From contig JAUVGH010000001.1 of assembly GCA_030593885.1 (NCBI GenBank), positions 40,463-104,462 on the forward strand: a stretch of 64,000 nucleotides of DNA, written 5' to 3'. Positions 27,891 to 64,000 of this stretch are shown in pieces. How positions within the stretch are numbered: position 1 is the stretch's first letter; the number at the start of each line of letters is the position of its first letter. The stretch comes from Methanomassiliicoccales archaeon (GTDB taxonomy: Archaea; Thermoplasmatota; Thermoplasmata; RBG-16-68-12; SOIM01). Below the pieces are notes generated by a model, which saw only the letters and a list, made by a program, of their open reading frames with translations, had not been told where the DNA came from and searched no databases. A program made the position numbers and the translations under genes.

Positions 27891-30800
27891 ATGGGTAGAA
27901 CAAGTGGCCGGCGCCTTCTCGTCTCGGTTCTGAGCTTCTTCATGCTATTCGGCAGTTTCGCCGTGCTCAACTCAGATGAAGTTATTGCCCAAGGAGACGC
28001 CGTATTGGACGTCGGATGCCTAGACGAACCCAAGACCAGGAACATACTCGCTGCAAATGACGTGTGGACCCACAATGTTCTTGATCCAGTTTACGACTCC
28101 GTAACCAAGCCAGATCCCAAGACAGAAGAGGTGAAACCCTACATATTGAAAGGAACGGATGCGGACGGGGACGGCGTTTTCGGTGACAACGAGTACGGAG
28201 TCTTCACGAGCATTCCTGGCAAACCTCTGGAAGTTACGGCCTTCTACGACTTCAACGGCGTCCTGTTCCATGACGGATATCAGGCGACCGTTGAGGATCT
28301 TTTATTCACGTACCACATGGTCGCACTTGACCCAAGGACCATCTCACTGGACGTATTGAAGGACAAGAACAACCTGCCCGGATCGAACTACAGCATCACA
28401 AGATGGCTGCATCTCAATGAGCTGAAAGGGTTCGATCCACTTGACACTCTCAATAATGGGGATTGGGGCATTACGACCAAGGACTACTCTGACCCCGGCT
28501 ACAATACGAGTTTGAGAGCCGCTGTGCATATCAAACAGCAAGCCCCATACTGGGATTTCTTCCGATCTACCCTGTCTCGGACCTTCCTACCCGCCTATCT
28601 CTGGCAGGGAACTGGATGCATCTATGAGAAGGACACCTCAACCTTCAAGTGCGGCATTCACAAGAACAGGGATGGATCCGCCATGGATTCTTTCGGCATT
28701 GCATACGATCCCGATACCGGGAATGGCGTGCCCCAGAGCGACGGCAGGAAGTTCGACTACAGTCTTGCCGAGAGCTGGGACATTCCTGATGAATATGTGA
28801 TCGGAACCGGACCTTTCACATTTGACAGATGGGTGCCAGGACAGTTCGCAAGTCTAGACAGAAACGACGACTATTTCGTTGGCGAATCCTATCTCCACAA
28901 GCCATACATCGAGGGAATGCTCTTCAAGGTGTTCAAGACCACCCAGACAGCCGTCTTCGCCCTCAGGAGCGGGGACATTGACTACATCGCAATGTCGATC
29001 CCACCTGCATTCGTTCCAGAACTTCTCAATGATCACAGCATCAGTATTGTCTCAACGTCACCCAAAGGGTTCTCTTATCTATCTTACAATATGAGAGGTG
29101 AGCCTTTCGGATACCAAGGCGGAGATCCAAGGAATCCTGACGTGGGCAAGAACTTCCGACAGGCTGTTGCCCACCTCATCGACAAGAAGACCATCGTCAC
29201 CAGCCTGCTTCAGAACTACGGTATCGTCGCTGACGGTCCTGTGAGCCCAACGCTGGCCAGATGGTACAACAGCTCACTGCCCCAGCTCCCGTACGACCCA
29301 GGGGCGGCCGACGCTCTTCTTGACACTTATGATGCGTGGGACTCCTCAGACGGTCCATGCACCAACGCTAACCCGAGTGGGTGCAGGACATTCCCGGTGG
29401 TGGGGAACAGCGAGATTGAGATATTGACCCCTAACGCCGACTACGACCCCATCAGGGCTGCCGCAGGTACTCTCATCGCACAAGCAATGAACGAAGCTGG
29501 AATAAACGCCAGATCGGTTCCAACAGCCTTTGGTGAGATCGTAATGAGAATTGACGCGCGAGACTTCCAGATGTTCATCCTCGGATGGAGGATAGGTTCG
29601 GATCCGCCGGACTACTTCCATGCCTTCTTCTACTCAAGGAACGCGGCCCAGGGTCAGAACTATCCCGGATATCAGAGCGACGAGTTCGACGTGCTAAGTC
29701 TTCAGACTCGTCAAGAACTGGACGGGCCCACGCAGGTATCTCTTGTTAAGAAAGCACAAGGTGTTCTAGCCTTCGATAGGCCATATGATGTTCTGTACTT
29801 CAGGACAATCATCGAGGTATACAGATCGGACAGATTTGTCAACTGGACGGTAGGCGCCGCGGGAACCATCTTCAGCTACTGGTCATGGCTGGGCATTCAT
29901 GAACCACCGTCCGACCCCCTTCGAATCACGACTTCAATTCAGACCGATGTGGCGACGGACAGCACAGCTGCTTTCAAAGCAACCGTCACCGACCCCAATG
30001 GGAACGCCCTTTGGGGTGCAACGGTCAGTGTCTATGTTGATCCTTTTTATGGGGAATTCGTGCTTGGTCCTCAGAGGTCGAACCTGGTGAGTGGACAGAC
30101 GGATACGAACGGGGACTTGGTTGTGACCTACGTCCCGCCCACTCTTGCAGCCAACGACACAGCAAGAACAATCTTCGTCTATGCTTGGGCCACTCATCCC
30201 GGACATAATGAATCAAGAAATGCCACAGAGACCATTGTGGTTCATCCAGTTGGCGAGAACTTTCTCTCTTTGTTGATCGATTTGCCCGATGGAGACCTGG
30301 TGCCCGAGGGGAGTTCAGCCTCTATTGAGATTCAGGTTGTTGACCAAGACCAGAACCCGGCCAGTGGTGCGAATGTTTACATTGTTTCAACACCACCGGC
30401 GACGATCAATCCCAGTAACGGGACCACGGACGCAAACGGCTACATCAGTGGCCTGCCGGGCGTTATTTTCTTCTCTCCCAATGTTACCGGTGATACTCAA
30501 CATCTTATATCGATTATCGCCCAGAAGCTAGGCTATGATAGCGCAGTCGAGAGTCTGTTTCTGACCGTCAAGGACAATCGAAAGCCAAATGTGTCAATTA
30601 CTTCCATCTCCCCAGGTCAGGAACTATCTGGAGAGGTTAACATCACAGGGGATGCCAGCGATGAGGATGGGGATGACGATATCATCAGGGTTGAAGTTCG
30701 AATCGATGGTGGCAGTTGGCAGAACGCAACCGGCACATCACGCTGGAGTTTCTTGTTGGACACGTCAGATCTCTCCAACGGAGACCACATGCTCAGCTTC

Positions 30801-32336: not shown

Positions 32337-32451
32337 CCCACCCAGCATAAACAGAAACAGTATATTCAGTTGACAAGAAAAAGTATTTAATGTCAACCCA
32401 ATATGCCACTCTCACTCTGCCTTCTTGGCGGTCAGGAGAGGAGGAATGGAA

Positions 32452-35298
32452 ATGGGCGGAAGAAACAGCCGAAGAGGAATAGCCTCTATTGTGAGCGTAA
32501 TACTTGTGTTCTCCATGTTGCTCGGTTCGTTTCCCCTGTATGTCGCTGGGGACAACACGAGAGGGGACGAAGACGTGATTCTGAGAATAGGAGCACAGGA
32601 CGAACCCAAGACCAGGAACATACTCGCATCTGGCGACGTATGGACCCAGAACGTTCTGGGACCGGTATACGATTCTGTGACCCAGATGAATCCGGAGACC
32701 GAGGAATTGATGCCGTACATCCTGAAAGGTACTGATCTCAACGGAGACGGGATATTCCAGGACAATGAGTACGGGGAATTCAGAAGCATAGAGGGAAAAC
32801 CTAAGGAAGTGACTGCCTTTTACGACTTCAACGGCGTCCTGTTCCATGACGGATATCAGGCGACCGTTGAGGATCTTTTGTTCACGTACCACATGGTCGC
32901 ACTTGACCCAAGGACCATCTCACTGGACGTATTGAAGGACAAGAACAACCTGCCCGGATCGAACTACAGCATCACAAGATGGCTGCATCTCAATGAGTTG
33001 AAAGGGTTTGACACACTTGATGCTCCCATTGGCGATTGGGGCATTACGACCAGGGACTACACTGACCCCAGCTACGACACGAGCCTGAGAGCTGCCGTTC
33101 ATTTCAAGCAACAGGCCCCTTATGCCAACTTCTACAGAGCCACAATGTCTTGGAGTGCATATCCCAGACATATCTGGGAGGGTACTGGTTGCATCTATGA
33201 GAAGGACACCTCGACCTTCAAGTGTGACATTCACAAGAACCCAGACGGATCCGCCATGGACTCCTTCGGCATTGCCTATGATTCCCTTACCGGGAACGGC
33301 GTGCCTGACACCGATTCCAGGAAGTTCGAGTACAGTCTGGCCGAGAGCTGGGACATTCCGGACGAATACGTGATTGGAACCGGCGCGTTCATGTTCGACA
33401 AGTGGGTCCCCGGTCAGTTCTCCAGTCTTACCAGGTTCGAAGATTTCTACACAGGTGAAGGATACATCCACAAGCCGTACATCAACGGGATGCTCTTCAA
33501 GGTGTTCAAGACCACCCAGACAGCGGTCTTCGCCCTCAGGAGCGGGGACGTTGACTACATCGCATGGTCGATCCCACCTGCATTCGTTCCCGAACTGCTC
33601 AACGACGCCAACATCGGCATCACAAGCACGGCCGAAAAGGGTTTCTTCTATCTATCTTACAATATGAGAGAGGAGCCTTTCGGATATCCAGGTGGAGATA
33701 CGACGAACGACCTGGGCAAGAACTTCCGACAGGCCGTTGCGCACTTGATCGACAAGAAGACCATTGTCACGAGCTTGTTGCAGAACTATGGCATCGTCGC
33801 TGACGGTCCTGTGAGCCCGACATTGGCCCGTTGGTACAATAGCTCATTGCCGCAGTTCCCGTTCGATCCAGTCAAAGCTGACACGTTGCTGGATACGTAC
33901 GATCCTTGGGATTCTTCGGACGGTCCATGCAACAAAGATAACCCCGGCCGATGTAGGTCCTTCCCTGTCATTGGGAACAGCCAGATCGAGATTTTGACTC
34001 CGAATGCGGAGTATGATCCAATCAGGGCTGCTGCCGGAACTCTAATCGCGCAGGCAATGAACGATGCGGGGATAAATGCCTACTCTGAGCCTACCGCCTT
34101 CGGTAAGATCGTTACGAGAATTGACGCACGAGACTTCCAGATGTTCATTCTCGGATGGAGGATAGGTTCGGATCCACCGGATTACTTCCACGCTTTCTTC
34201 TACTCAAGGAATGCGGCTCAGGGTCAGAACTATCCTGGATATCAAAGCGACGAGTTCGACCAGCTGATACTTGATGCTAGAGAAGAGCTCAATCCACAGA
34301 AACAAGTCGACCTCATCAAGACGGCACAGGGTGTGCTGGCCTATGACCGACCATACGACGTTCTGTACTTCAGGACCAACATCGAGGCCTACAGGTCTGA
34401 CAAGTTCACCAACTGGACGGTAGGCGCCGCGGGAACCATCTTCAGCTACTGGTCATGGCTGGGCATTCACCGGCCTCCGCCGGATCCGTTGCGAATCACA
34501 TCATCGATCCAGACCGCTGTCAAGACGGACAAGACGGCCAAGCTCATTGCGACCGTTAGGGAACCGGACGGCGATGTTCTTCAAGGGGCCACAGTTGAGG
34601 CATACGTTGCTTCCACGGATGGAGATTTCGTGCTGGGAACGACAGTATCGAACTATGTAACTGGCACCACCGACTTGAATGGGCAATTCAAGGTGACCTA
34701 TCAACCGCCGATCTTAGCGAAAAACGACACTCAACGAACGATGTTCATTTATACAAAGGCAACGCACGTGGACTATCCTGAATCAAGGAACGCTACGATT
34801 ACAATCGTAGTGCATCCGCCCGGCGGTAAGTTCCTATCCATGCTGGTGAACTTGTTGGGTGGAGATTTGGTGGAAGAAGGAAGACCGACGCTGATGAGCG
34901 TCAAGATCACCGATCAGGACGAGAATCCGGTCTATGGCGCGAGCGTTGTCATCAGTTCAGATCCTCCGGCGGAGATCACTCCCAGCAGTGGAACCACCGA
35001 TACGAACGGTTTCATCAACAGCGTCGAGAACATCGAATTCATAGCTCCGGCAGTGGATGACAATCAAGACCATTTGATCACCATTACCGCCACTTTAGCC
35101 GACCACGAACCTACTGACAGGAACTTCACCATGACCGTGGCGGCCGAGCCCCCCCCTCCGGGCGGTGACTTCCCCTGGCTCATTGTCGGAGCGGGGATTG
35201 CCGTTGCTGGCGTGGTGGCGGGCATTGTCGCCTTCATGATGATGAAAGGTGGAAAGAGGAAGAGAAGGCGCAAGATCCAGAAGCTGAAGGAAGGGTAG
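32452..35298 (+). CDS. ABC transporter substrate-binding protein (family 5) with C-terminal Ig-like domains and TM anchor; paralog 2
   Basis: Collinear with paralog 1. ATG 32452 gives MGGRNSRRGIASIV.., matching MGRTSGRRLLVSV.. of paralog 1, and follows GGAGAGGAGG. The track uses TTG 32425. C-terminal TM WLIVGAGIAVAGVVAGIVAFMMM plus a K/R tail. Confidence 0.88.
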   Translation: MGGRNSRRGIASIVSVILVFSMLLGSFPLYVAGDNTRGDEDVILRIGAQDEPKTRNILASGDVWTQNVLGPVYDSVTQMNPETEELMPYILKGTDLNGDGIFQDNEYGEFRSIEGKPKEVTAFYDFNGVLFHDGYQATVEDLLFTYHMVALDPRTISLDVLKDKNNLPGSNYSITRWLHLNELKGFDTLDAPIGDWGITTRDYTDPSYDTSLRAAVHFKQQAPYANFYRATMSWSAYPRHIWEGTGCIYEKDTSTFKCDIHKNPDGSAMDSFGIAYDSLTGNGVPDTDSRKFEYSLAESWDIPDEYVIGTGAFMFDKWVPGQFSSLTRFEDFYTGEGYIHKPYINGMLFKVFKTTQTAVFALRSGDVDYIAWSIPPAFVPELLNDANIGITSTAEKGFFYLSYNMREEPFGYPGGDTTNDLGKNFRQAVAHLIDKKTIVTSLLQNYGIVADGPVSPTLARWYNSSLPQFPFDPVKADTLLDTYDPWDSSDGPCNKDNPGRCRSFPVIGNSQIEILTPNAEYDPIRAAAGTLIAQAMNDAGINAYSEPTAFGKIVTRIDARDFQMFILGWRIGSDPPDYFHAFFYSRNAAQGQNYPGYQSDEFDQLILDAREELNPQKQVDLIKTAQGVLAYDRPYDVLYFRTNIEAYRSDKFTNWTVGAAGTIFSYWSWLGIHRPPPDPLRITSSIQTAVKTDKTAKLIATVREPDGDVLQGATVEAYVASTDGDFVLGTTVSNYVTGTTDLNGQFKVTYQPPILAKNDTQRTMFIYTKATHVDYPESRNATITIVVHPPGGKFLSMLVNLLGGDLVEEGRPTLMSVKITDQDENPVYGASVVISSDPPAEITPSSGTTDTNGFINSVENIEFIAPAVDDNQDHLITITATLADHEPTDRNFTMTVAAEPPPPGGDFPWLIVGAGIAVAGVVAGIVAFMMMKGGKRKRRRKIQKLKEG
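32821..33008 (+). repeat. Partner of the near-identical 188-nt tract at 28245-28432
   Basis: See 28245-28432. Confidence 0.85.
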
Positions 35299-37068: not shown

Positions 37069-40000
37069 ATGGTAGATACTGCCAGGCTCAAAGAGAAGAT
37101 CCGAGCGTATCGGAAGGTCTTCAAGCAGAACTGGGACCTGTTCAAGGCAAGCAAGATCGGCGTGATAGGAGTCATCATCGTGTTCTTCTTCCTCGGAATG
37201 GCCATCATCGCTCCTTTCATGAACCTCAGGGACCCCATCAACTGGAGGGCACCAGATGCAGACATAATCCGGGTGAACTCTTGGTGGGGCGTTGGAAGGA
37301 ACGTTTCACAAACACAATGGAATGCGGGCGAACCTATCAACAAGACCGTGTCCTTCCGGGTAAAACCCGCAGGCGCCCAGGCGCTGGAATCTGACAGGGT
37401 GTACTTCACTTCAGGGAATCGATTATTCTCTTTAAAACCGGGCGATGCTGGATCCTATTGGACCGATTGGGACACTCCTGAGAACTTTGATTTCAGGCAC
37501 ATCACCGATGCCCACTTTTCCACTGACGTCGTGGTGGCCAACTTTGGGAACCAGTACGATTCGGCCGAGGTGGATTACCTCCTCGGAGTGGGTACAAACG
37601 ACGGTTACATCTACATAATAGAGGACTACGATGGCGGCCCGACCATTCTCAAGGAATCGACTCCGTCGGTGGCGAACGGACGCGTGTACTACGAGCAGCT
37701 GGACAGTGCGATAACATCTACGGCCCTCTACAGCAATCCGGGGTCTGGAAGGAGCCCCGTGGAGAAGTACTTCTTTGGGACCGAGGGCGGATGGCTTTAT
37801 GCATATTCGGTGACCAAGTTCGACAATGAGAATTGGGTTTTCGGCTCGGGAAACTGGTCCACGATGCCTCTGGGAGAAGGTGAGATCAGGCCGTCCCCGA
37901 GGACCAACTTCAGCATGGTCTACGATTCCATCAATGACAAGATGGTGCTGTTCGGAGGTAACGATGGGCTCCTCAACGATGAGACCTGGATATACGATCC
38001 GGTGACACAGGTTTGGACCAGGATTGAGACAGACTGGCATCCCTCGGCCAGATACGGTCACTCCATGGCCTTTGATTCCAGCACCGAGAAGGTCGTACTG
38101 TTCGGAGGCGTCATCGACAACTCGGCCAATCCATGGAGCAATGAAACCTGGATTTTCGACGTGGATGCAAGCAATTGGACCCAGGTGAGCATCCCACCAG
38201 GTCTTTGGGGAAGGGCCTTCTCCGCAATGGCCTTCGACGAGGGTACTGGTATGACGGTGATGTACGGTGGAGATCATTGGTCCAATGAGACATGGACTTA
38301 TTCTGACGGACTGGGATGGATAAACAGAACGTCGGGCATTTTCCCCACTGGCAGATATGGACACGCAATGACATATGACAGCATCAGCGGTCGAGTTGTC
38401 ATGGTCGGTGGAAGCGACGGCGGCAACGAGACCTGGACTTACAATTCATCTACTCACGTATGGTCAGACCTGATCCCGCCCGCTGGACCGTCCCCGAGGA
38501 TGTTCCACGACATTGTTTTCGACGTTGCCAACAACCGCACTCTGATGTTCGGTGGGGATACTGGTTGGGATGAGACCTGGGCCTTTGATGGTGGTGCCTG
38601 GACCGAAATCACTCCTATATCAAACCTCTCGGGAAGGACCGGGCACTCGATGGTCTACGACTCGAACAGGAGTGAGATATTTCTCTTCGGCGGCGACGAC
38701 CGGACCTTCAGCATGCTGTGGTACCGGCAGTTGAGCACAGAGGATCCCATATTGATGGCGGGTTTCCCTCTTAGCACACCCACAGACCCCAATTACTCCC
38801 CATCACTGAACGCCAATGGGACCATGATCTTTGTCAACGATGGAGGACTTCATGCGATCAACGCATTCGACGGTACTGATGCATGGGGCACACCATCCCT
38901 TGACATGGGTCCGGAATGGACCAACACCCCGGTAGTGGCTGTCCCAGGTCTGATAGGAACCGATTTCACGGAGGCCGTTTACGCGACGACCGATCACGGC
39001 TGGATATATGCCCGGTATGCGGACAACGGCAGTTCCCTTGCATCTTGGGAGGATCGGGGACTGGACGACAATATGACCGCCACCGATGGAGGAATCCCGG
39101 TAATGATCGACCTGGTGACGTTCGACGGTGGCGTCCTCACAACACCGGACTTCTTTGGGGACCTCATTTATCTGGGCTCGAGCTCAGGTCATCTTTACGC
39201 GATCCGCAGGGACCCGTTGCCAGGCTTTCCCGCTGGGTCCACGGTTTGGATCTACTCCGATAGGATTTTTATCAACGCCGGCTTCGCCTACACCGGGGGT
39301 GTGAGATTCGTAAGAGAATCGCGGTTACTGTTCGCCGTTGGCTATGAGGGATATACCACTCCAGGGAATTTGGATGATGATATAGGGACTCTGTTCATCC
39401 TCGGAGAGGACGGTAGCCTCTCCTGGAGGAAGACCGTCGATGGCAGGATCGGAGGTACGCCCACGATCTGGAAGGACAATGTGGGAACCCATCCGACACC
39501 CAGCGTCTGGTTCGGAACGAGTAAGGGCATCGCAAACGCATATTCTTCCACTGGCGAGAACATGGCGCCTCTTCCGCCAGGATGTTACGATTCCGGTAAT
39601 TGCTACACACTTGGGACGGACTCACAAGGCAGGGACATCTTCAGCCAGTTGATGTGGGGGTCGCAGGTCGCTCTCACGGTCGGACTTCTGGCAGCTGGAG
39701 GCTCCATAGGTATCGGCACGATCATTGGTTTGGTATCCGGATACTCGGGCGGTAGGATCGATTCGGTTCTGATGAGGTTCACTGATGTCATTCTGGTTCT
39801 ACCCGGTTTGCCCTTCCTCATCATTCTCGCCGCAGTGCTCGGTCCGAGCTACTGGAACATCATCTTCGTGCTGACCATCATTGGGTGGCCAGGTACTGCA
39901 AGGGTCATTCGTTCGGAGGTCCTTTCTTTGAAGGAAAGGCCTTTCATCGATTCCGCAAGGGTCACGGGTGCAAGCAACATCCGCATAATGTTCAAACATC

Positions 40001-40275
40001 TGGCACCCAACGTGATGCCCCTGGCCTTCCTGTACATGACTCTCGCGGTGAGCGGATCCATCCTCGCGGAGGCGGCGCTGAGCTTCCTTGGTCTTGGAGA
40101 TGTGAACACCGCCAGCTGGGGCCTGATGCTCCAGGCGGTCCAGACCGAGAACGTGCTTGCAGCGTGGTGGTGGTTGATGCCGCCCGGTATCGCTATCACA
40201 TTCATCTCATTGGCATTCTATCTCATCGGCAGGGCATTCGAACAGATCGTCAACCCGCGTCTGAGGAAGAGGTGA
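37069..40275 (+). CDS. ABC permease, OppC/DppC type, with a ~790-aa Kelch/PQQ-like beta-propeller ectodomain inserted after TM1
   Basis: ATG immediately follows the OppB stop. TM1 is IGVIGVIIVFFFLGMAIIAPF. Six Kelch-like blades (e.g. RYGHSMAFDSSTEKVVLFGG, GRYGHAMTYDSISGRVVMVGG, GRTGHSMVYDSNRSEIFLFGG). The canonical OppC core starts at LGTDSQGRDIFSQLMWG (39610 onward), with the EAA region SARVTGASNIRIMFKHLAPNV. Confidence 0.88.
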   Translation: MVDTARLKEKIRAYRKVFKQNWDLFKASKIGVIGVIIVFFFLGMAIIAPFMNLRDPINWRAPDADIIRVNSWWGVGRNVSQTQWNAGEPINKTVSFRVKPAGAQALESDRVYFTSGNRLFSLKPGDAGSYWTDWDTPENFDFRHITDAHFSTDVVVANFGNQYDSAEVDYLLGVGTNDGYIYIIEDYDGGPTILKESTPSVANGRVYYEQLDSAITSTALYSNPGSGRSPVEKYFFGTEGGWLYAYSVTKFDNENWVFGSGNWSTMPLGEGEIRPSPRTNFSMVYDSINDKMVLFGGNDGLLNDETWIYDPVTQVWTRIETDWHPSARYGHSMAFDSSTEKVVLFGGVIDNSANPWSNETWIFDVDASNWTQVSIPPGLWGRAFSAMAFDEGTGMTVMYGGDHWSNETWTYSDGLGWINRTSGIFPTGRYGHAMTYDSISGRVVMVGGSDGGNETWTYNSSTHVWSDLIPPAGPSPRMFHDIVFDVANNRTLMFGGDTGWDETWAFDGGAWTEITPISNLSGRTGHSMVYDSNRSEIFLFGGDDRTFSMLWYRQLSTEDPILMAGFPLSTPTDPNYSPSLNANGTMIFVNDGGLHAINAFDGTDAWGTPSLDMGPEWTNTPVVAVPGLIGTDFTEAVYATTDHGWIYARYADNGSSLASWEDRGLDDNMTATDGGIPVMIDLVTFDGGVLTTPDFFGDLIYLGSSSGHLYAIRRDPLPGFPAGSTVWIYSDRIFINAGFAYTGGVRFVRESRLLFAVGYEGYTTPGNLDDDIGTLFILGEDGSLSWRKTVDGRIGGTPTIWKDNVGTHPTPSVWFGTSKGIANAYSSTGENMAPLPPGCYDSGNCYTLGTDSQGRDIFSQLMWGSQVALTVGLLAAGGSIGIGTIIGLVSGYSGGRIDSVLMRFTDVILVLPGLPFLIILAAVLGPSYWNIIFVLTIIGWPGTARVIRSEVLSLKERPFIDSARVTGASNIRIMFKHLAPNVMPLAFLYMTLAVSGSILAEAALSFLGLGDVNTASWGLMLQAVQTENVLAAWWWLMPPGIAITFISLAFYLIGRAFEQIVNPRLRKR

Positions 40276-42781: not shown

Positions 42782-43348
42782 GTGAACAAACTCGTTCGTT
42801 TAATCGGCATCTCCTTCATAATCATCTCATTGCTCTCATTCGGGCTTCTATACGTCACTTCGGTCAACTACCTGAACTACACCGAGACCGCTTCAGAGAT
42901 CCCGCAGAACATAGAGATATCCGAGGTCCGCATTCCGCTCATCACTGACGAGTTGCAGGACCAGATCGTGGAGGTCCTTTTTACAGTCTCTAATCCGTCC
43001 AGTCTGACCATTTACGTTACCAGCATCGAGGCATATGTCTACATGGACAACTATTCCGATATCCGCCCCTTCCTGGAGAAGATGAATGAGATACTCGTTG
43101 GCATAGGCCAGTTCAGTTTCCAGAAGGCCGATTCCCACATCATCCGTCCGGGAGAGTCGATGACCATTCCCGTCCGCATGACTGTCAGCGGTGGCTCAGT
43201 CTTCATGTCGATTCTCAACACCACTTCTGACGGGAAATACTATCCATATGTCTTCGGGACCATGTGGTACACATTTGAGTACATAGATCTGATCGAAGTA
43301 GTAAGAGGAGTGTCATTCCTTGGAAGAGCTGGAGTCGAGCCCTATTGA
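42782..43348 (+). CDS. TM-anchored beta-sandwich protein, possibly LEA14/WHy-like; function unknown
   Basis: GTG start. N-terminal TM LIGISFIIISLLSFGLLYV, then a beta-rich body (VEVLFTVSNPSSLTIYVTSIEAYVYMDN). The family call is tentative. Confidence 0.5.
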   Translation: MNKLVRLIGISFIIISLLSFGLLYVTSVNYLNYTETASEIPQNIEISEVRIPLITDELQDQIVEVLFTVSNPSSLTIYVTSIEAYVYMDNYSDIRPFLEKMNEILVGIGQFSFQKADSHIIRPGESMTIPVRMTVSGGSVFMSILNTTSDGKYYPYVFGTMWYTFEYIDLIEVVRGVSFLGRAGVEPY

Positions 43349-43382
43349 ATTGAAACCCGTTAAGAGGTCCTACGTTGTCCTC

Positions 43383-43922
43383 ATGGTCCTGGGTTGGACC
43401 CTAGCTTCAGCTGTGATCATAACGTACTTCTTCTTCTCCACCTTCTTCCCAGAGTTCTCGCCCATCGACCCGGGAGATGCCGGCCTTGCCTTCCTTGTCG
43501 TTCCAGGTTTCTGCGGCTTCGTTACAGGGGCGATGCTCAGCGAGTTTGATGAGAAGGTCGCCGTTTACGGCTCGTTCATCCTTACTGGCATGGCAATTGG
43601 CCTGATATTCGTCGTACTGTTCCTCCCTCTGATCACTGGCACTGTCCAGGATATGACCCAGCTGGGATCCACTGACGAGGAGAGGCAATCGATCGTCCTT
43701 TCCTCAATCTTCCTCCTTCCAATATCCCTCATTGGCACCATTGCAGGGAAGGCATTCGGAGAGGTGTACCTGCCTAGCGAAGAGGAGAAGATCACGAGAG
43801 AGCTTCTGATCAAGGACACCAAGAGATGGCATGACATGCTCCAGTCCTACGTTCGCGAGAAGATGAGGAAAGATGAAGAAGAGATCAAGGAGCCAGAAGA
43901 GGAACCCAAGGAAGAGGACTAG
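43383..43922 (+). CDS. Small polytopic membrane protein with a charged C-terminal tail, function unknown
   Basis: About four hydrophobic helices, then ..KMRKDEEEIKEPEEEPKEED. The start is uncertain: ATG 43383, TTG 43350 or TTG 43320. Confidence 0.5.
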   Translation: MVLGWTLASAVIITYFFFSTFFPEFSPIDPGDAGLAFLVVPGFCGFVTGAMLSEFDEKVAVYGSFILTGMAIGLIFVVLFLPLITGTVQDMTQLGSTDEERQSIVLSSIFLLPISLIGTIAGKAFGEVYLPSEEEKITRELLIKDTKRWHDMLQSYVREKMRKDEEEIKEPEEEPKEED

Positions 43923-57284: not shown

Positions 57285-58766
57285 ATGGCGCTTGAGATCC
57301 ACCTGATATCGCTCATCCTCGTCTTCCCGATAGTCGGCGCGTTGCTGACCTACATCCTCCCGCTCAAGAACAGGGACACGAAGATAGTGGCCGTGGTCAT
57401 GTCCATCATACCCCTGATACTGTCCACGATGCTCATTCTGGGCGTTCTAACTGACTTCGTCGATCTTACCCAGGAAGGCGATTTCTTTGCGGTCGAGAAG
57501 GCTGAATGGATACCCCAGGTGGGCATAAACTACCACATCGGTGCGGACGCCCTTTCTGCAGTACTGGTATTCCTGACATCTCTTTTGGTCACACTGGCAC
57601 TGATTCATTCTTGGGATGAGACCCATCGCCACAGGGAATTCAACGCGATGCTGCTGTTCATGCAAACCACAATCATCGGGGTGTTCGTCTCTCTCGATTC
57701 CTTCCTCTTCTTCATGTTCTGGGAGGTCGGTCTTGTACCGATGTACTTCCTGATCGCCATCTGGGGCGGTCCCAACAAGAAGTATGCGGCCATCAAGTTC
57801 TTCCTGTTCACTCAAGCGGCCAGCATTTTGGTGCTGATAGGGATCTTCGCGTTCTGGTTCTCCTCCGACCCGCACACGTTCAGCATGGTCGCTTTCATCG
57901 AGAACAATCCGATAGGAGCTGCTTCTCAGGACCTGCTGTTCATCGTCATGATGTTCGGGTTCGGAACCAAGTTACCCATGGTGCCAGTGCATACGTGGTT
58001 ACCTGATGCGCATGTCGAAGCGCCTACCGCTGGGTCTGTACTTCTTGCCGGCGTTTTGCTGAAGATGGGCGGCTACGGTCTCATTAGGTTCAACGTCCAG
58101 ATGTTCGATTCGGTGTCCGACTGGGTCTGGGTGATGTTCGGTGCCATTGGTGTAATAAGCATGGTGTACGGCGCGTTCGTCTGCCTCGCTCAGGACGACC
58201 TGAAGAGGATGATCGCCTTCTCCAGCATCAGCCACATGGGCATAGTGATGTTGGGGATATCAACCTGGGCTTTGGGCGGAAGCCAAATCGGAATGGCGGG
58301 CGCGATATTCCAGCTGTTTGCACACGGCCTCATCTCAGCGGCGTTGTTCATGATCGCAGGTTCTGTTGGACACAACCTTGGAACCAGGAACATATCTGAG
58401 TTAGGGGGGATTGCTCCAAAGGTTCCAAAGACAGCAGGGTTCATGATGGTGGCGTTCCTGGCGTCTTTAGGCTTACCTGGTCTGGTAGGGTTCGTAGCGG
58501 AGCTGAGCGTCTTCGTGGGAACCTGGGAGGCGTTCGGCCTGTGGATATTCTTCCCGATAATCTCTATCGCATTGACGGCTGGATACTACCTCTTCGCCAT
58601 GCAAAGGGCCATCTTCGGTCCGTACAATGAGACGTTGGAGGATCCAAAGGACCTCAGGACCTTCGAGACCGTTCCGTTGGCCGTGCTGACATTCACATTC
58701 GTCCTCTTCGGCATCCTTCCGATTCTGCTCATGGATAAGATATTCGAGTGGGTGGCCGCCTTATGA
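57285..58766 (+). CDS. nuoM: Nuo/Fpo-like complex subunit M, copy 2 (tandem paralog)
   Basis: FFMFWEVGLVPMYFLIAIWGGPNKKYAAIKF, HTWLPDAHVEAPTAGSVLLAGVLLKMGGYGL. Confidence 0.9.
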   Translation: MALEIHLISLILVFPIVGALLTYILPLKNRDTKIVAVVMSIIPLILSTMLILGVLTDFVDLTQEGDFFAVEKAEWIPQVGINYHIGADALSAVLVFLTSLLVTLALIHSWDETHRHREFNAMLLFMQTTIIGVFVSLDSFLFFMFWEVGLVPMYFLIAIWGGPNKKYAAIKFFLFTQAASILVLIGIFAFWFSSDPHTFSMVAFIENNPIGAASQDLLFIVMMFGFGTKLPMVPVHTWLPDAHVEAPTAGSVLLAGVLLKMGGYGLIRFNVQMFDSVSDWVWVMFGAIGVISMVYGAFVCLAQDDLKRMIAFSSISHMGIVMLGISTWALGGSQIGMAGAIFQLFAHGLISAALFMIAGSVGHNLGTRNISELGGIAPKVPKTAGFMMVAFLASLGLPGLVGFVAELSVFVGTWEAFGLWIFFPIISIALTAGYYLFAMQRAIFGPYNETLEDPKDLRTFETVPLAVLTFTFVLFGILPILLMDKIFEWVAAL

Positions 58767-60295
58767 CCTACTCAGTTCTGTCCCCGATATTCATCCTCCT
58801 GGCGTTCTCCTTTGCGATAATGATCTTGAGCGTCTTCGTGAAGAGCCAGCGGAGATACTTCGCCTACATGACGCTTGTCGGGTTGATAGTTGCGCTGTTC
58901 TTGGTCTTGGACATGGCGGGACTTTCTTTCACGAGCGCGATGGGTCTGGATCTTTGGTCTGCCCCCGTTGACGTGTACTTCTCGGATCTGAAGATCAAGG
59001 TGGATTCGTTCTCTCTGTTCCTGTACATGATATTCATCTTCGTTGGGATCCTGGTCACGATCGGGTCCATCTCGTACATCGATAAGGAGGAGAAATACAG
59101 GGCGGAATACTTCTCTTTGATGCTGCTGGCCTTGGTCGGCATGATGCTCATTGCATCTGCGACGGATTTGTTCGTGTTATATCTCTCGTTCGAGTTAGCT
59201 AGCATTTCCACATATGCCTTGGCGGCGTTCCAGAGGAAGGACAAGGCATCCGCGGAGGCTGGATTGAAGTTCTTCTTGATGGGTGCGGTTTCGTCTGCGA
59301 TCGCTCTGTTCGGCATCTCGATCATCTATGGTGTAACGGCATTTGCAGGTGGAGCTACCACCGACCTCGCTGGGATCTCTGATGCGCTGGCCGTTGGCCT
59401 GACCATGGAAGGAATGACCATCCCGATTATCTTGGGGATTGTTCTTCTGATCGCTGGCTTTGGATTCAAGATAGCAGTGGTCCCGTTCCATATGTGGGCG
59501 CCCGACGTTTATCAAGGCAGTCCCACGACGATATCTGCCCTCCTTGCAGCTGGTTCGAAGAAAGGCGGTTTCGCGGCGTTCTTCAAGATATTCCTGTTAG
59601 GGCTGATCGCAGCCAGAATGGAATGGGTGTTCCTTGTCGCGGTCCTCGCAGTTGTCACCATGGTGGTTGGTAATGTTTTAGCGATTGTCCAGACCGACCT
59701 GAAGAGGATGTTGGCATATTCCAGCATTGCGCATGCGGGTTACATTCTAATCGCCGTTTGCGTAGGCACGTTGGCGGCGGACCCGGCGACTCTCAGTATC
59801 GCCCAATACGGTCTTGCTGGCGGTCTTTACCACATGCTTACCCACGCTTTGATGACGGGCGGGGCGTTCTTGGTCGTTGCTTTGACCGCGATGGCGAAGA
59901 TAGGTGACAATCTCAATGACTACAAAGGACTGTACAAACGGATGCCTATTGTCGCGTTCTGCATGATGGTGCTACTTCTGGCGCTGGCCGGTATTCCACC
60001 GTTGGGAGGATTCTTCAGCAAGTTCGTTCTGTTCTCTTCTGCGGTGAACGCCGGGGATTGGTTCGTCTGGTTGGCGGTCGCCGGTGTGTTGAACAGTGCT
60101 ATCTCCTTGTACTATTACGCCCGGGTGATCAAGTACATGTACATACTGGAAGGACCGGACGAGACGAAGGTGAAGGCACCAACTGGTCTTTACATCGCTG
60201 TGATACTCGCGACGGTTGGGATCGTGATCACTGGTCTACTTGCAGAGCCAATAATCAGGTTCGCTCAGGATGCGGCGGCTGCCTTGCTCGGTTAG
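58763..60295 (+). CDS. nuoN: Nuo/Fpo-like complex subunit N
   Basis: ATG 58763 forms an ATGA overlap with the nuoM2 stop; the track uses GTG 58748. ..LYLSFELASISTYALA.., ..PFHMWAPDVYQGSPT.., ..KRMLAYSSIAHAGY.. Confidence 0.9.
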   Translation: MTYSVLSPIFILLAFSFAIMILSVFVKSQRRYFAYMTLVGLIVALFLVLDMAGLSFTSAMGLDLWSAPVDVYFSDLKIKVDSFSLFLYMIFIFVGILVTIGSISYIDKEEKYRAEYFSLMLLALVGMMLIASATDLFVLYLSFELASISTYALAAFQRKDKASAEAGLKFFLMGAVSSAIALFGISIIYGVTAFAGGATTDLAGISDALAVGLTMEGMTIPIILGIVLLIAGFGFKIAVVPFHMWAPDVYQGSPTTISALLAAGSKKGGFAAFFKIFLLGLIAARMEWVFLVAVLAVVTMVVGNVLAIVQTDLKRMLAYSSIAHAGYILIAVCVGTLAADPATLSIAQYGLAGGLYHMLTHALMTGGAFLVVALTAMAKIGDNLNDYKGLYKRMPIVAFCMMVLLLALAGIPPLGGFFSKFVLFSSAVNAGDWFVWLAVAGVLNSAISLYYYARVIKYMYILEGPDETKVKAPTGLYIAVILATVGIVITGLLAEPIIRFAQDAAAALLG

Positions 60296-60349
60296 TTCTT
60301 GTGGGTGGACAGAAAGGTTTTTTTGGGCTGTCGTTGATTGCTGACGAAA

Positions 60350-60438
60350 GGGCCTGTGGTCTAGTGGCCTATGACGTCACCCTTACAATCTCCGGATGAG
60401 AAAGGTGAATATCGGCGGTTCAAATCCGCCCAGGCCCA
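60350..60438 (+). tRNA. tRNA-Val (anticodon TAC) with a ~15-nt intron at the canonical 37/38 position
   Basis: Hand fold, in order:
- acceptor stem GGGCCTG/CAGGCCC with discriminator A
- D arm GTCT-AGTGGCCTA-TGAC
- anticodon stem TCACC/GGTGA, interrupted after CTTACA(A) by ATCTCCGGATGAGAA (~60388-60402); anticodon TAC at 60384-60386
- variable loop ATATC
- T arm GGCGG-TTCAAAT-CCGCC
No encoded CCA. Confidence 0.85.
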
Positions 60439-60551
60439 TCTACTACGTCTTCCCAGACAATCGAACGAAGAAACCTACTTATATCCTCGAATTGATTTGA
60501 CTTCCGTCCAGTTGAGGGATCTTACAGCATCTTTCAGGCAGAGGGATTGTA

Positions 60552-62999
60552 TTGGACGTTGGAACAGGGATTGAGCCTTCACAGGAGAAGCCTCCACCGC
60601 ATCCAAACCGAAAGTTCATGTACGGTCTTGGAGGTCTTGTCGCAGGGCTTGTCGCAGTGACTCTCATTCTATCTGTCGTATTGTCTCCGTTAGTCCCGGG
60701 ACCAAAGGAAGACAAAGGAGAAGACATTGGAGAGGCCACCATGTATTGGTCTCTCGACACGGAACTTCCCAACATAGGCGCAGGAGATCCGATCAAGCAC
60801 AACATCGCATTTCGGGTTAAGGCCGCAGGCGCTCAGGCTCTAGTATCCGACAGGATTTACGTTCCGTCCGGAAACAAGCTCTTGGCGCTCAGATCCTCAG
60901 ATGGCCAACCCGCGTGGTATGTGGGCTCCGGGCAAATCCCTGCCCCTTACTTTGAGACCGCATCCGAGATCAGTGCAGACCCGATATCGGTCAATCTCGG
61001 CAATCAATACGATCCCCACGATTCAGAATTCATGGTTTACGTAGGAACAAACGATGGAACGGTGTACTTCATCCGCGAGTCTCAGGAGATTCACCCGATA
61101 CAAATGACCTCGCCGTTTCCCGAAGATGTCATCGAAGTTCTTGGACAGGGTTCCATAACCTCGCTGGCGGTTTACACCGACGCATCATATGGAAATCACC
61201 CATCTGAGAGAGTCTTCTTCGGCACATCCGATGGATGGTTGTACGCATATCCCGCTGAGATCGACTTCGTCTCCCGAAATGACGATACCTGGTTCTATGA
61301 TTTTGCCAGTGATGAATGGGTAAAGGGCTCTTCCGATGAAAACCCCTTCAGGAGGATTGGCCATTCTCTGGTTTATGATTCTGCCAGAGACCGAGTCCTA
61401 CTCTTTGGTGGCGAAGGATCTGGCACGAACACAGAGATGTGGTTTCTCGATCCAGCTTCGAATTGGAGGACAGTGGAAGCCCCTTTCGATACTGTCCCCA
61501 TCCCAGTGGACAATCCAGCCGCAGTCTATTATGAGGCAACTGATTCCATTCTCCTTTTCGGAGGAGAGAGCGCTCTTGGCGACAGCTATCAACCTCTTAT
61601 GTTGAACCTCACTCTAATGGAATTGGTACGCCTCTCACCCAGTCCCCCGCCATCGGGAAGACACGGTCATCAGATGGTATACAACTCTCAAGATCACATC
61701 GCCTTCCTATTTGGGGGGTTCAGTAACACTCCGTCCTCGGATTTCACCAAACTTTACAGCATGGATAATGATACTTGGTGGCTGTCGGATGCTCCTGACC
61801 CAGACCGGAGGTTCGATCATTCTATGACTTATGATTCCAGCAATAATAGAGCGGTTCTTTTTGGCGGCTCGGACGAGAGCCAACTGTTCAACGACACCTG
61901 GGTGTACAATTTCCAGAATTACTCTTGGGATCAGATAATCACCGATCCCTCCCCTTCAGCTAGAAAGAACCATTCCATGGCGTTTGATCCCTCGTCCGGT
62001 TCCGTGCTCTTGTTCGGTGGTGAGGGCGACGCTAGCCGATATGACGACACATGGATCTTCGATGTCTCGACTCAAGAATGGCAGAAGATGAATCCCTCCA
62101 CAACGCCCTCCGCAAGGTTTGGACACAGTATCACCGTGGATGAATCTACAGGCAAAGCCGTTCTTTTCGGTGGGGACGATGGAATATCTGGCGAGATCTG
62201 GAAGCGAAAACTGGGGAACTCACCAATCAGAATGGCCGGAGTCCCACTCGAATCCCCGACCGACCCGAACTTCTCCCCCGCGGTAAACAACAATGGAACC
62301 ATCCTTGTTGTCAATGTTGGGAGTCTCCGAGCAGTGTGGACGCAGAATGGCTTGGATGCATGGGGTGAACGGTCGGACGCCCCTCACATACAATCCGGCG
62401 CAGTGAACATCGGTGGGAACTGGAGCTCCGAGCCTGCTATAATCCCCCCAAGTATGTACGAGGGTCAATTCCTCGATCTGACACTTGTCGGATCCGGGGA
62501 TGGTTGGCTTTATGCTTTCTCGACCTGGGACGGAACCGTTCTCAACCATTGGAAGAGAATGGGGAAGCTGAATCCCGACACCTACATCCACGGAATTCAC
62601 CTGAGAAAAATGTCAGGCAAATATGATGATGGCGCTCTCGGTAGACCCGTGGCGTTTGGAGACTGGATCTTTGTCAGCTCCGCATCTAAATTGGTCTACT
62701 GCTTGAATGTTGGCGAGTCTGAGTTCGGCAAGATTGTCTGGAAAGTGGACACATTCGGGGCGGTCTCTGGCAACATTTACTTTGTCCGCCAGCAAAGGGC
62801 GCTTCATTTTGTCGACCAAACGGGCAGGCTTTACGGTATAACGGATGATGGCACGATTGTTTACAGGGTGTTTCTCGGAACCACTGTATCAAGCGGAGTC
62901 TCGGTTTGGAAAGACAATGATAGTTCTCGTCCCACGCCAGCGGTGTGGGTTGGGGGCGATGATGGATTGATCCATAGCTATTCTTCTCCACCCTATTGA
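60552..62999 (+). CDS. TM-anchored Kelch/PQQ-like beta-propeller ectodomain protein, paralog of the OppC-like permease insertion
   Basis: TTG 60552, or ATG 60618 giving MYGLGGLVAGLVAVTLILSVVL (TM). Six Kelch-like blades (RRIGHSLVYDSARDRVLLFGG, GRHGHQMVYNSQDHIAFLFGG, RRFDHSMTYDSSNNRAVLFGG, ARKNHSMAFDPSSGSVLLFGG, ARFGHSITVDESTGKAVLFGG and others). Collinear motif matches to 37069-39600. Confidence 0.85.
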   Translation: MDVGTGIEPSQEKPPPHPNRKFMYGLGGLVAGLVAVTLILSVVLSPLVPGPKEDKGEDIGEATMYWSLDTELPNIGAGDPIKHNIAFRVKAAGAQALVSDRIYVPSGNKLLALRSSDGQPAWYVGSGQIPAPYFETASEISADPISVNLGNQYDPHDSEFMVYVGTNDGTVYFIRESQEIHPIQMTSPFPEDVIEVLGQGSITSLAVYTDASYGNHPSERVFFGTSDGWLYAYPAEIDFVSRNDDTWFYDFASDEWVKGSSDENPFRRIGHSLVYDSARDRVLLFGGEGSGTNTEMWFLDPASNWRTVEAPFDTVPIPVDNPAAVYYEATDSILLFGGESALGDSYQPLMLNLTLMELVRLSPSPPPSGRHGHQMVYNSQDHIAFLFGGFSNTPSSDFTKLYSMDNDTWWLSDAPDPDRRFDHSMTYDSSNNRAVLFGGSDESQLFNDTWVYNFQNYSWDQIITDPSPSARKNHSMAFDPSSGSVLLFGGEGDASRYDDTWIFDVSTQEWQKMNPSTTPSARFGHSITVDESTGKAVLFGGDDGISGEIWKRKLGNSPIRMAGVPLESPTDPNFSPAVNNNGTILVVNVGSLRAVWTQNGLDAWGERSDAPHIQSGAVNIGGNWSSEPAIIPPSMYEGQFLDLTLVGSGDGWLYAFSTWDGTVLNHWKRMGKLNPDTYIHGIHLRKMSGKYDDGALGRPVAFGDWIFVSSASKLVYCLNVGESEFGKIVWKVDTFGAVSGNIYFVRQQRALHFVDQTGRLYGITDDGTIVYRVFLGTTVSSGVSVWKDNDSSRPTPAVWVGGDDGLIHSYSSPPY

Positions 63000-63120
63000 T
63001 GTCGATGGTTTGGATGAGCGCTTTCGGCCATAGCCAAATTCCCATCATCCAAATCATGTGAAGGTTCTACAGAGTTCCCACTGAACGGTCTTGAATCCAA
63101 CCTGCCAACAACAAACGGTT

Positions 63121-64000
63121 CTAGACAGCTTCCATCGTGCTCGGTGGCTTGGGCGTGATATTGTAAGTGACGCTCACGACATCAGGCACTTCGTTGACCA
63201 ATCTCTCCGCGATCCTTTCCAGATTCTCATGCGGAACCCTCGTCGGAGTGGCAACTCTCGCATCCACGCTGTCCCAGCATCGAACCTCGATCTGCTGACC
63301 GTACTCCCTCTTCCCGTCTCTCATTCCCGGCACCCTGCTGTCGTGCAGGATCGCCATGTACTGGAACGCCCCGGAGTCAGCCAGTTCCTCTTCAACTATC
63401 ACCGTCGCCTTCTTGATGGTCGCCACTTTCTCCGGTGTAACTTCACCGATTATCCTCCCGGCCAATGCAGGTCCCAAGAAAGGCATCCTGTTGTAGATCT
63501 CTTCCGGCAGGCCCAAAGCGGCGGCCAACTTCCTGACCCCGTCCTTCCTGAGATGTATCAGCGGCTCCACGACGTTGTAACCGAACTCCTGCTCTGTATC
63601 GATGCCCACCTGAGTGAGGATGTTATGCTGCCTCTTGATGCCAGCGACCGTCTCGTCCACGTCCGTCAGGATCGTCCCTTGCATCAGGTGCTTTGCACCA
63701 CTGTCCCTCACCAGCTTCCCGAAGACATCCTTGTAGAACGTCCTGGTTATGGCCTCTCTCTTCTCCTCCGGGTCAGTAAGACCCTTCAAAGCTCCGTAGA
63801 ACTCCGCCTTCGCATCTATGATCTGGACATCCACGCCGAGGTTCTTGAAAACATCCCGTACGTGCTCCGGCTCCCCTTCCCTCATCATTCCGTGGTCTAT
63901 GAAGACCGTTTTGAGGTTGTCGCCCATGGCTCTGTGCCCGATCAAGGTGACAGCCGATGAATCGACCCCGCCTGAAAGGGCATTGATGCCTATTCCTTCT
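63121..64000 (-). CDS. guaA: GMP synthase, ATP-pyrophosphatase/dimerisation part; the N-terminus runs off the right edge
   Basis: The minus-strand frame is open to the window edge: ..GINALSGGVDSSAVTLIGHRAMGDNLKTVFIDHGMMREGE.. contains the SGGVDS P-loop. The C-terminus is ..VTYNITPKPPSTMEAV. The track lists only the part from an internal Met (63945). Confidence 0.88.
   Translation of the reverse strand, partial: EGIGINALSGGVDSSAVTLIGHRAMGDNLKTVFIDHGMMREGEPEHVRDVFKNLGVDVQIIDAKAEFYGALKGLTDPEEKREAITRTFYKDVFGKLVRDSGAKHLMQGTILTDVDETVAGIKRQHNILTQVGIDTEQEFGYNVVEPLIHLRKDGVRKLAAALGLPEEIYNRMPFLGPALAGRIIGEVTPEKVATIKKATVIVEEELADSGAFQYMAILHDSRVPGMRDGKREYGQQIEVRCWDSVDARVATPTRVPHENLERIAERLVNEVPDVVSVTYNITPKPPSTMEAV

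Follow-up and report, generated by a model that had tools for sequence, protein, structure and literature searches.

Folded ectodomains on the permeases of ATP-binding cassette (ABC) importers are, to our knowledge, rare, and we know of only one, the P2 loop of MalF, that has been studied in depth. Importers of the GlnPQ and OpuA type carry extracytoplasmic modules that are encoded either by separate genes or in fusion with the translocator; in such importers, the module is itself the binding protein, whereas the module described here is a predicted pair of propellers unrelated to binding-protein folds. In the present work, we analyzed a 64,000-nt stretch of the genome of a Methanomassiliicoccales archaeon (contig JAUVGH010000001.1; hereafter the window), in which this module of about 770 residues occurs twice: within a permease of the OppC type and as a free-standing, membrane-anchored protein, P0001, whose gene starts 20.3 kb beyond the end of the permease gene. 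In the best explanation we can offer, which we consider somewhat probable, P0001 would be a type-II-like membrane protein that arose as an ancient fission product of a permease, has been kept by selection, and serves as a surface partner of binding proteins.

Like the permease-borne module, the P2 domain of the E. coli maltose importer, which is a type I ABC importer, is a folded extracytoplasmic domain that sits in a loop of a permease. The binding protein is recruited by P2, which even in isolation binds MalE with a Kd of 7-22 uM (PMC6906923). P2 differs in being Ig-like, about 180 aa long and inserted between transmembrane (TM) segments TM3 and TM4 of MalF, whereas the archaeal domain lies in an OppC-type subunit, between TM1 and TM2, measures 770 aa and is predicted to be a double propeller; docking of a binding protein is predicted for it by analogy. 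No free-standing paralog of MalF P2 is cited.

Each of the two predicted propellers has relatives of known structure. The outer one resembles BamB and other eight-blade PQQ-like propellers (8orr, 3q7m, 4xga; YxaL, 7dxn) in its fold, its PQQ_2 domain and its G.LYA..G...W repeat; it shares 13-16% identity with them and differs from BamB-type proteins by the lack of a lipoprotein signal and the presence of a nested Kelch propeller, and it is not an ortholog of BamB. BamB is a non-enzymatic scaffold, and we know of no BAM machinery in archaea. The inner one has, according to Foldseek, the six-blade fold of KLHDC2 (6do4; TM-score 0.78, rmsd 2.2 A, 24% identity) together with its repeat signature. 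It differs from KLHDC2 and from NanM/YjhT in that it is predicted to be extracellular and nested in another propeller.

The closest described proteins are OppC-type permeases of Thermoplasmata, namely that of the window (37069-40275), P0016, P0018, P0019, P0033 and P0124, and Kelch-less ones such as P0127. Their homology to P0001 begins at TM1 and extends through the last blade, at 31-36% identity, and the Kelch-bearing ones share its domain order and nesting point; in a sister family of free forms, identity to the permease of genome G017 is 54%. The free form differs from all fused permeases in several respects: (i) it lacks the BPD_transp_1 core and the OppC_N segment, (ii) it has lost the juxtamembrane motif RDPINWRAP and the linker APLPPG..GN.Y.LGTD to TM2, both present in every fused form, and (iii) it occupies a separate locus with its own start and is accessory, whereas the permease is conserved.

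A free-standing copy of the permease ectodomain

The free gene encodes a full-length paralog of the ectodomain of the permease of its own genome. The first-pass annotation had proposed that the two proteins are collinear and named a pairwise alignment as one way to check it; BLASTP aligns residues 30-812 of P0001 with residues 32-827 of the permease in a single collinear high-scoring segment pair (HSP; 836 columns, 31% identity, 47% positives, E=7e-108), and every motif pair listed in that annotation falls into aligned columns of this one alignment. The objection that the similarity might be confined to the Kelch blades does not hold, as both non-Kelch flanks match separately. When like pieces were compared, the N flanks were 37% identical over 185 aa (E=4e-34), the Kelch parts 31% identical (E=7e-39), and the C flanks 31% identical over 287 aa (E=1e-41). 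Comparison of unlike pieces gave non-significant or marginal matches, the best of which (N flank versus C flank, E=1.8e-4) is at the level of the PQQ repeat. Thus, the similarity exceeds that between repeats. Across 13 family members, 85 columns are invariant, and these are spread over both flanks and the Kelch part.

In the permease, OppC_N covers residues 19-52 and BPD_transp_1 residues 883-1067, with about 780 residues between the two domains; among the NCBIfam models Opp4C and NikC score best, all under their equivalog cut-offs. P0001 ends three residues past ...HSYSS, at the place where the permease runs on as ...YSSTGENMAPLPPGCYDSGNCYTLGTDSQGRD (also given as ...STGENMAPLPPGCYDSGNCYTLGTDSQGRD) into its core, so the end of the free form is where it had been said to be. 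In P0001 itself, we found no Pfam or NCBIfam permease match, one hydrophobic segment, and no OppC/DppC core (PF00528 and PF12911) with its EAA loop. Consequently, it does not sit in the TM1-TM2 loop of an OppC-type permease and represents a free variant of that ectodomain family without BPD_transp_1. The fused permease is the sole full-length paralog of P0001 in the 2.14-Mb, 86%-complete genome, where the remaining matches cover the Kelch part only; several further large Kelch surface proteins are encoded there. The same genome also has a second OppC-type permease (L030, contig C32:1313-3529, minus strand, at least 738 aa) with a 59% identical core. Its ectodomain of about 480 aa occupies the same TM1-TM2 loop and bears no detectable resemblance to the flanks of the propeller; genome G003 encodes an ortholog of this permease.

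The open reading frame (ORF) of P0001 (60552..62999, plus strand) encodes 815 aa between a TTG start and a TGA stop, with no internal stop. The database entry P0003 (793 aa) begins instead at ATG 60618. We prefer TTG 60552 because the N-terminal tail that precedes the internal Met, LD.GTG.EP.QEKPPPH.NRK, is conserved in the orthologs P0005 and P0006, because P0006 lacks this Met, and because GAGG, a putative ribosome-binding site, lies 7 nt ahead of the TTG (60541..60544, plus strand). A putative TATA box, TTATAT, was read at 60479-60484; scans for sigma-70 promoters and terminators gave nothing above chance with models that are unsuited to archaea.

The N-terminal TM anchor foreseen for this protein is borne out by its single hydrophobic segment (about residues 24-45) and by the AlphaFold model, which has a helix at residues 20-44. 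In the alignment, the anchor pairs with TM1 of the permease, and the BLASTP HSP begins within the anchor. The helix is immediately preceded by NRK and followed by an acidic stretch, which fits a topology with the N terminus inside, the C terminus outside, and about 770 residues exposed. N-glycosylation sequons are mildly enriched (9 versus 5.6 expected) and were not counted as evidence.

Predicted architecture of the ectodomain

In the models, the outer part of the ectodomain is a BamB/PQQ-like propeller with eight blades, and one of its blade hairpins harbours a Kelch propeller with six. The earlier account of its makeup was right about the Kelch blades and their order; in place of one domain plus Kelch blades, the module is now read as a BamB-like propeller that encloses the Kelch propeller. 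The Kelch part of P0001 scores far above the Pfam cut-offs (PF24681, 158.5 bits against 50; Kelch_4, 133 against 21.6; Kelch_3, 102.6 against 22), Kelch_6 is also above its cut-off, and PQQ_2 (PF13360) is marginal at 34.0 bits against 27.6, a cut-off that is passed in P0125 and P0127 as well. The AlphaFold model of P0001 (pLDDT 80) is all-beta, with 33 strands in the flanks and 24-25 in the insert (residues 241-553).

A fold search with the whole of P0001 was swamped by matches to Kelch and tandem propellers, and for this reason a Kelch-less homolog was modelled. Searching 1.84 billion cluster representatives by phmmer with the C flank alone retrieved eight proteins at E<1e-10; two of these, the OppC-type permeases P0126 and P0127 (764-766 aa), lack the Kelch part, and their N flank runs straight into the C flank. 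In the model of P0127 (pLDDT 85, above 90 in the ectodomain), the ectodomain matches the eight-blade BamB with a TM-score of 0.70-0.76 and the designed propeller Cake8 with 0.78, and the membrane part matches DppC and OppC of E. coli and OppC of M. tuberculosis. The eight-blade fold is thus seen on the Kelch-less P0127 and for P0001 follows from the alignment and the 33 flank strands.

The joint alignment places the Kelch block exactly inside one PQQ-type hairpin, G.LYA[FY] / ..LW, in every member that has a Kelch part, whether free or fused; by strand count, the host blade is about the fourth of the outer propeller. At this very point, the metagenome permease P0125 carries an unrelated, weakly GH43-like insert (residues about 215-560), which is probably another propeller. 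The presence of a different insert at the nesting point marks this hairpin as a probable hot spot at which domains become nested.

Several identities with known proteins were considered and rejected. With the BamB models of NCBIfam, scores of 19-20 bits fall short of the cut-offs (285-423), and the host is an archaeon; PQQ-dependent dehydrogenases give weak fold matches only (TM-scores of 0.34-0.44 to 8gy2, 1kv9 and 2d0v) and no enzyme family match; the NCBIfam mutarotase models of NanM/YjhT reach 29.3 bits against 256 and 28.1 against 416. By sequence, the flanks matched in PDB only designed PQQ-type propellers and, marginally, BamB. No Pfam, NCBIfam or PDB entry covers them as a family, and searches of the open-access literature returned no description of a double-propeller permease ectodomain. 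The polar residues R88, D100, R101, N148, D692 and D755 are invariant across fused and free forms.

Direction of the event and exchange between copies

As a lone query, P0001 found no related loci on genome contigs, and the alignment A3 used as a query found two. The full-length relatives fall into three groups: (i) free forms of 790-823 aa that are 54-88% identical to P0001, (ii) free forms with additional Ig/fn3 domains and a C-terminal anchor (44-45% identity), and (iii) Kelch-bearing permeases (31-34% identity). The module therefore exists both alone and fused, as first suggested, and does so in several lineages. By a query with the Kelch-less ectodomain, at least 55 clusters carry the outer propeller with no Kelch part, and all 55 retrieved are fused to BPD_transp_1. 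These are near-full-length permeases of about 690-777 aa and a few shorter partial ones; where they are named, the name is 'Thermoplasmata archaeon'.

The choice between gene fusion and gene fission, left open in the first-pass annotation, proved to be the correct frame, and the phylogeny of free and fused forms that it recommended points to fission. In the flank tree (464 columns) rooted on 43 Kelch-less permeases, the free forms are nested in a clade that otherwise consists of permeases, and in the full-ectodomain tree rooted on the Kelch-less clade they likewise nest within the fused forms. Free proteins thus probably originated by duplication of a permease gene and loss of its core. The TM/juxtamembrane region is less conserved in the free forms (0.56/0.67) than in the fused ones (0.81/0.88), with about equal conservation of the ectodomain in both groups, which is consistent with the same direction. 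We conclude that the most likely event is a fission that turned a permease into a free protein. In the proposed order, a permease with a plain propeller would have acquired the Kelch insertion, and a duplicate would then have lost the five-helix transport core.

Two points weigh against this direction: it rests on the rooting, as the window-type free clade appears in the unrooted tree as one side of a branch, and the tree of the membrane core depends on canonical OppC outgroups with very long branches. The reverse order, in which the ancestor is a TM-anchored double propeller that stood free and was fused ahead of a 5'-truncated OppC gene, is permitted by the unrooted tree, where the root may be put on the free branch, and the N-terminal tail of the free form indeed has no OppC_N signature. 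We nevertheless regard it as very unlikely. It would require at least two precise excisions of the Kelch part (in the 43-member Kelch-less clade and in P0126) and one replacement (in P0125), and all 55 Kelch-less clusters are permeases. Moreover, the core tree, when rooted on canonical OppC, has its root among the Kelch-less permeases and not at the fused group of the window, the insert sits in the loop after TM1 that is a universal feature of OppC, and the free forms of the sister family adjoin a fused permease in the tree of their central region. A frame of 712-756 aa in genome G005 was considered as a Kelch-less member within the Kelch clade and rejected, since the gene is cut by an assembly gap: at this locus (L041, C1:464500-469200), a run of N breaks the fused permease gene.

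The idea of a mobile module gains direct support from the sister family, whose free forms are mosaics. Over residues about 91-690, these are 55-70% identical to the ectodomain of the G017 permease; over residues 751-810, they are 44-45% identical to the window-type free forms and 31% to the G017 permease. In addition, the 12-residue motif GP.ED.GEDIGE that follows the anchor is common to the free forms of the sister family and of the window type and occurs in no fused form. The trees are divided in the same way. In the central region, the sister-family free forms (free_f2) join G017 with support of 100/100, and the approximately unbiased (AU) test rejects a single free clade (p=1.3e-7); the whole ectodomain gives the same grouping (100/100; single free clade rejected, p=0.006). 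The termini (145 columns) unite all 12 free forms in one clade (100/98) and reject the union of free_f2 with G017 (p=0.0008), as do the C-terminal 103 columns alone (p=0.013). The segment borders were picked after the identity profile had been viewed, and these p-values are therefore optimistic.

The simplest reading of these patterns is one fission followed, in the sister family, by gene conversion, with the fused paralog as the donor of the central body and with putative breakpoints near residues 95 and 700-750. Two independent fissions, with the shared termini explained by convergence after release from the membrane core, would agree with the central and whole-ectodomain trees and gain from the way in which the borders were chosen. 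They are opposed by the union of the 12 free forms by their termini, the rejection of free_f2 with G017 there, and the common motif after the anchor, and we consider this alternative, which concerns the sister family only, unlikely. Under a single fission with later conversion, free and fused paralogs of the sister family would still exchange sequence, which supports the notion of an exchangeable module. The mosaic is limited to these relatives; the free gene of the window shows none.

Genomic setting and candidate function

The free gene is accessory. It is the only gene of a variable segment that lies between a tRNA gene and a conserved gene of the GMP-synthase type (Table 1), the latter being 96-97% identical in the same-genus genomes G002 and G003. 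In G003, homology to the window stops at 60439, and the 3' end of the tRNA gene is separated from the guaA stop by about 5 bp; thus, positions 60440-63119 of the window are extra relative to G003. In G002, a gene for a 291-aa membrane protein takes the place of the segment. The fused permease is present in G002-G005, and G002 and G003 have it without the free gene. Since no att-like direct repeats flank the 2.68-kb segment, its integration as a mobile element is unsupported, and the locus looks like a variable site at which the segment was simply gained or lost. Part of the neighbourhood is kept by the orthologs: one has nuoL/M/N upstream, two have a GMP-synthase-type gene downstream, and none adjoins a transporter gene.

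The membrane protein that shares this site is 291-312 aa long, has no family match, and is encoded at L028 6922-7797 (plus strand), L012 8792-9703 and L019 6640-7578. The G002 copy has two hydrophobic ends; the gene stands alone in G002 and beside the free gene on two metagenome contigs. The anticodon of the bordering tRNA was read by eye as UAC (Val). ARAGORN reported no tRNA over 60200-60600, missing the intron-bearing gene that was later matched by Rfam.

Table 1. Coordinates of the free-standing gene, its parts, its neighbours and its fused paralog in the window
Feature	Position	Strand	Basis
Free-standing ectodomain protein gene	60552..62999	+	ORF and translation; orthologs with 54-88% identity on independent metagenome contigs; dN/dS about 0.2
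Short cytoplasmic N-tail, residues 1-23	60552..60620	+	Kept in close orthologs (alignment A1)
Single TM anchor, about residues 24-45	60621..60686	+	Sole hydrophobic peak, Kyte-Doolittle 2.6
N flank, residues 55-240, predicted first 3.5 blades (approximately) of the outer BamB/PQQ-like propeller	60714..61271	+	37% identity to permease N flank; 14 model beta strands
Predicted nested six-blade Kelch propeller, residues 241-548	61272..62195	+	Pfam; six ..FGG.. blades; Foldseek
C flank, residues 549-815, predicted other 4.5 outer blades (approximately)	62196..62996	+	31% identity to permease C flank; PQQ_2
Paralog: OppC-type ABC permease, 1068 aa, with ectodomain (about 37231-39558) in the TM1-TM2 loop	37069..40275	+	ORF, Pfam, BLASTP, NCBIfam
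tRNA gene with 16-nt anticodon-loop intron; left border of variable segment	60350..60438	+	Rfam RF00005, 56.4 bits
Variable segment, 2.68 kb, with the free gene as its only gene	60440..63119		blastn of window 58000-64000 against syntenic G003 and G002
GMP-synthase (ATP-pyrophosphatase subunit) type gene; right border, conserved neighbour	63121..63999	-	ORF; GMP_synt_C beside P0004 and P0006 orthologs

A gene that is missing from genomes of the same genus might be a non-functional remnant, that is, a decaying duplicate of the permease gene that has been truncated. This is extremely unlikely: intact ORFs of 790-823 aa are kept in at least five diverged orthologs and in two further subtypes, and no remnant of the core sequence is found downstream. 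Judged by its substitution pattern, the free gene is under purifying selection, with dN/dS of 0.14-0.29 (about 0.2) against three orthologs, in each flank as well as in the Kelch part. After the fission, the free gene would thus have been held by purifying selection as an easily lost accessory gene.

A possible function is suggested by the sister family. In G012 and G025, the gene for a free form that measures about 831 aa and ends in ...YCYSSI is followed, after 16-48 bp, by an SBP_bac_5 gene on the same strand; in G021, the two genes are again on the same strand and are separated by a RelE/RHH-type cassette. The encoded binding protein has a C-terminal anchor, is 44-45% identical to both binding proteins of the window's cassette, and in none of the three genomes has an adjacent permease or ATPase gene. 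This adjacency and the precedent of MalF P2 form the basis on which we propose that the free form acts at the cell surface together with OppA-type binding proteins. The tethered double propeller would act in trans, as a co-receptor or as a platform for docking and hand-over, and would itself transport nothing; this co-receptor or docking function is inferred from the gene neighbourhood and by analogy to MalF P2.

The orphan OppA-type genes (SBP_bac_5, with a C-terminal TM segment and an acidic tail) lie at L042 4937-6844 (plus strand), L043 492-3137 (minus strand) and L048 3-380 (minus strand). At L048 about 384-876 (minus strand), between the binding-protein gene and the free gene of G021, a RelE-like toxin and an RHH antitoxin were found with further sequence. 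The window's own cassette spans 27.9-43.9 kb, with its OppA-type binding-protein genes at about 27969-30044 and 32425-35298; a further, orphan OppA-type gene of this genome lies on contig C11, and OppB carries an Ig-like insert. In the cassette, the second ATPase gene is followed by two genes for small membrane proteins (42782-43348 and 43320-43922, plus strand) that are probably parts of it; their position is kept in the operon of a distant relative, on the contig of P0018 (L015 8636-9782).

Three observations speak against a partnership with binding proteins: (i) the free gene of the window adjoins no transporter or binding-protein gene and sits between nuoN/tRNA and guaA, and the same absence of transporter neighbours is seen in the close orthologs; (ii) the other neighbours in close relatives encode typical surface proteins (Kelch proteins of 1453-1517 aa, NosD beta-helix and PKD proteins); and (iii) with RDPINWRAP and the TM2 linker lost, any contact with a transporter cannot be that of the fused domain and must differ from it. 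Because the membrane-proximal motifs are lost and the window lineage has no binding-protein neighbour, a surface adhesin or lectin, neofunctionalised for a glycan, a polymer or cell-cell contact and with no remaining link to ABC transport, stays a serious rival, although a less probable one than the partnership. A sister subtype that has acquired a C-terminal anchor along with domains of the fn3 and Ig-like kinds, as in many archaeal surface proteins, would fit such a role, as would the dispensability of the gene within the genus and the other large Kelch surface proteins of this genome. An adhesin would not account for the pairing of the free form with an orphan OppA-type gene in three genomes of the sister family, for the retention of the six invariant polar residues listed above in both fused and free forms, or for an ectodomain that is about equally conserved in the two. 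Next to the fn3-type free form P0011, a convergent gene for a Ras/Roc-type small GTPase was observed on two independent contigs (L013 13652-14620 and L014 7082-8008, both on the minus strand).

Surface partnership of the free form with binding proteins, which we continue to favour, may be extended tentatively. The free double propeller could be a new accessory component of archaeal ABC importers, a tethered co-receptor working with orphan OppA-type proteins and interchangeable with the permease copy by gene conversion; this extension is doubtful at present. If it were true, binding proteins, or their polymeric substrates, would be captured or presented in trans.

A 770-aa domain that is found both on a permease and on its own anchor constitutes a natural experiment on the role of this domain, and the free form is a ready soluble-domain construct for binding and structural work. 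Genes of this kind carry no annotation beyond 'hypothetical' or 'Kelch repeat protein', and the present analysis ties them to an Opp-type cassette. A fission from permease to surface protein that is backed by trees, with later exchange between the copies, indicates one way in which surface proteins of archaea may arise.

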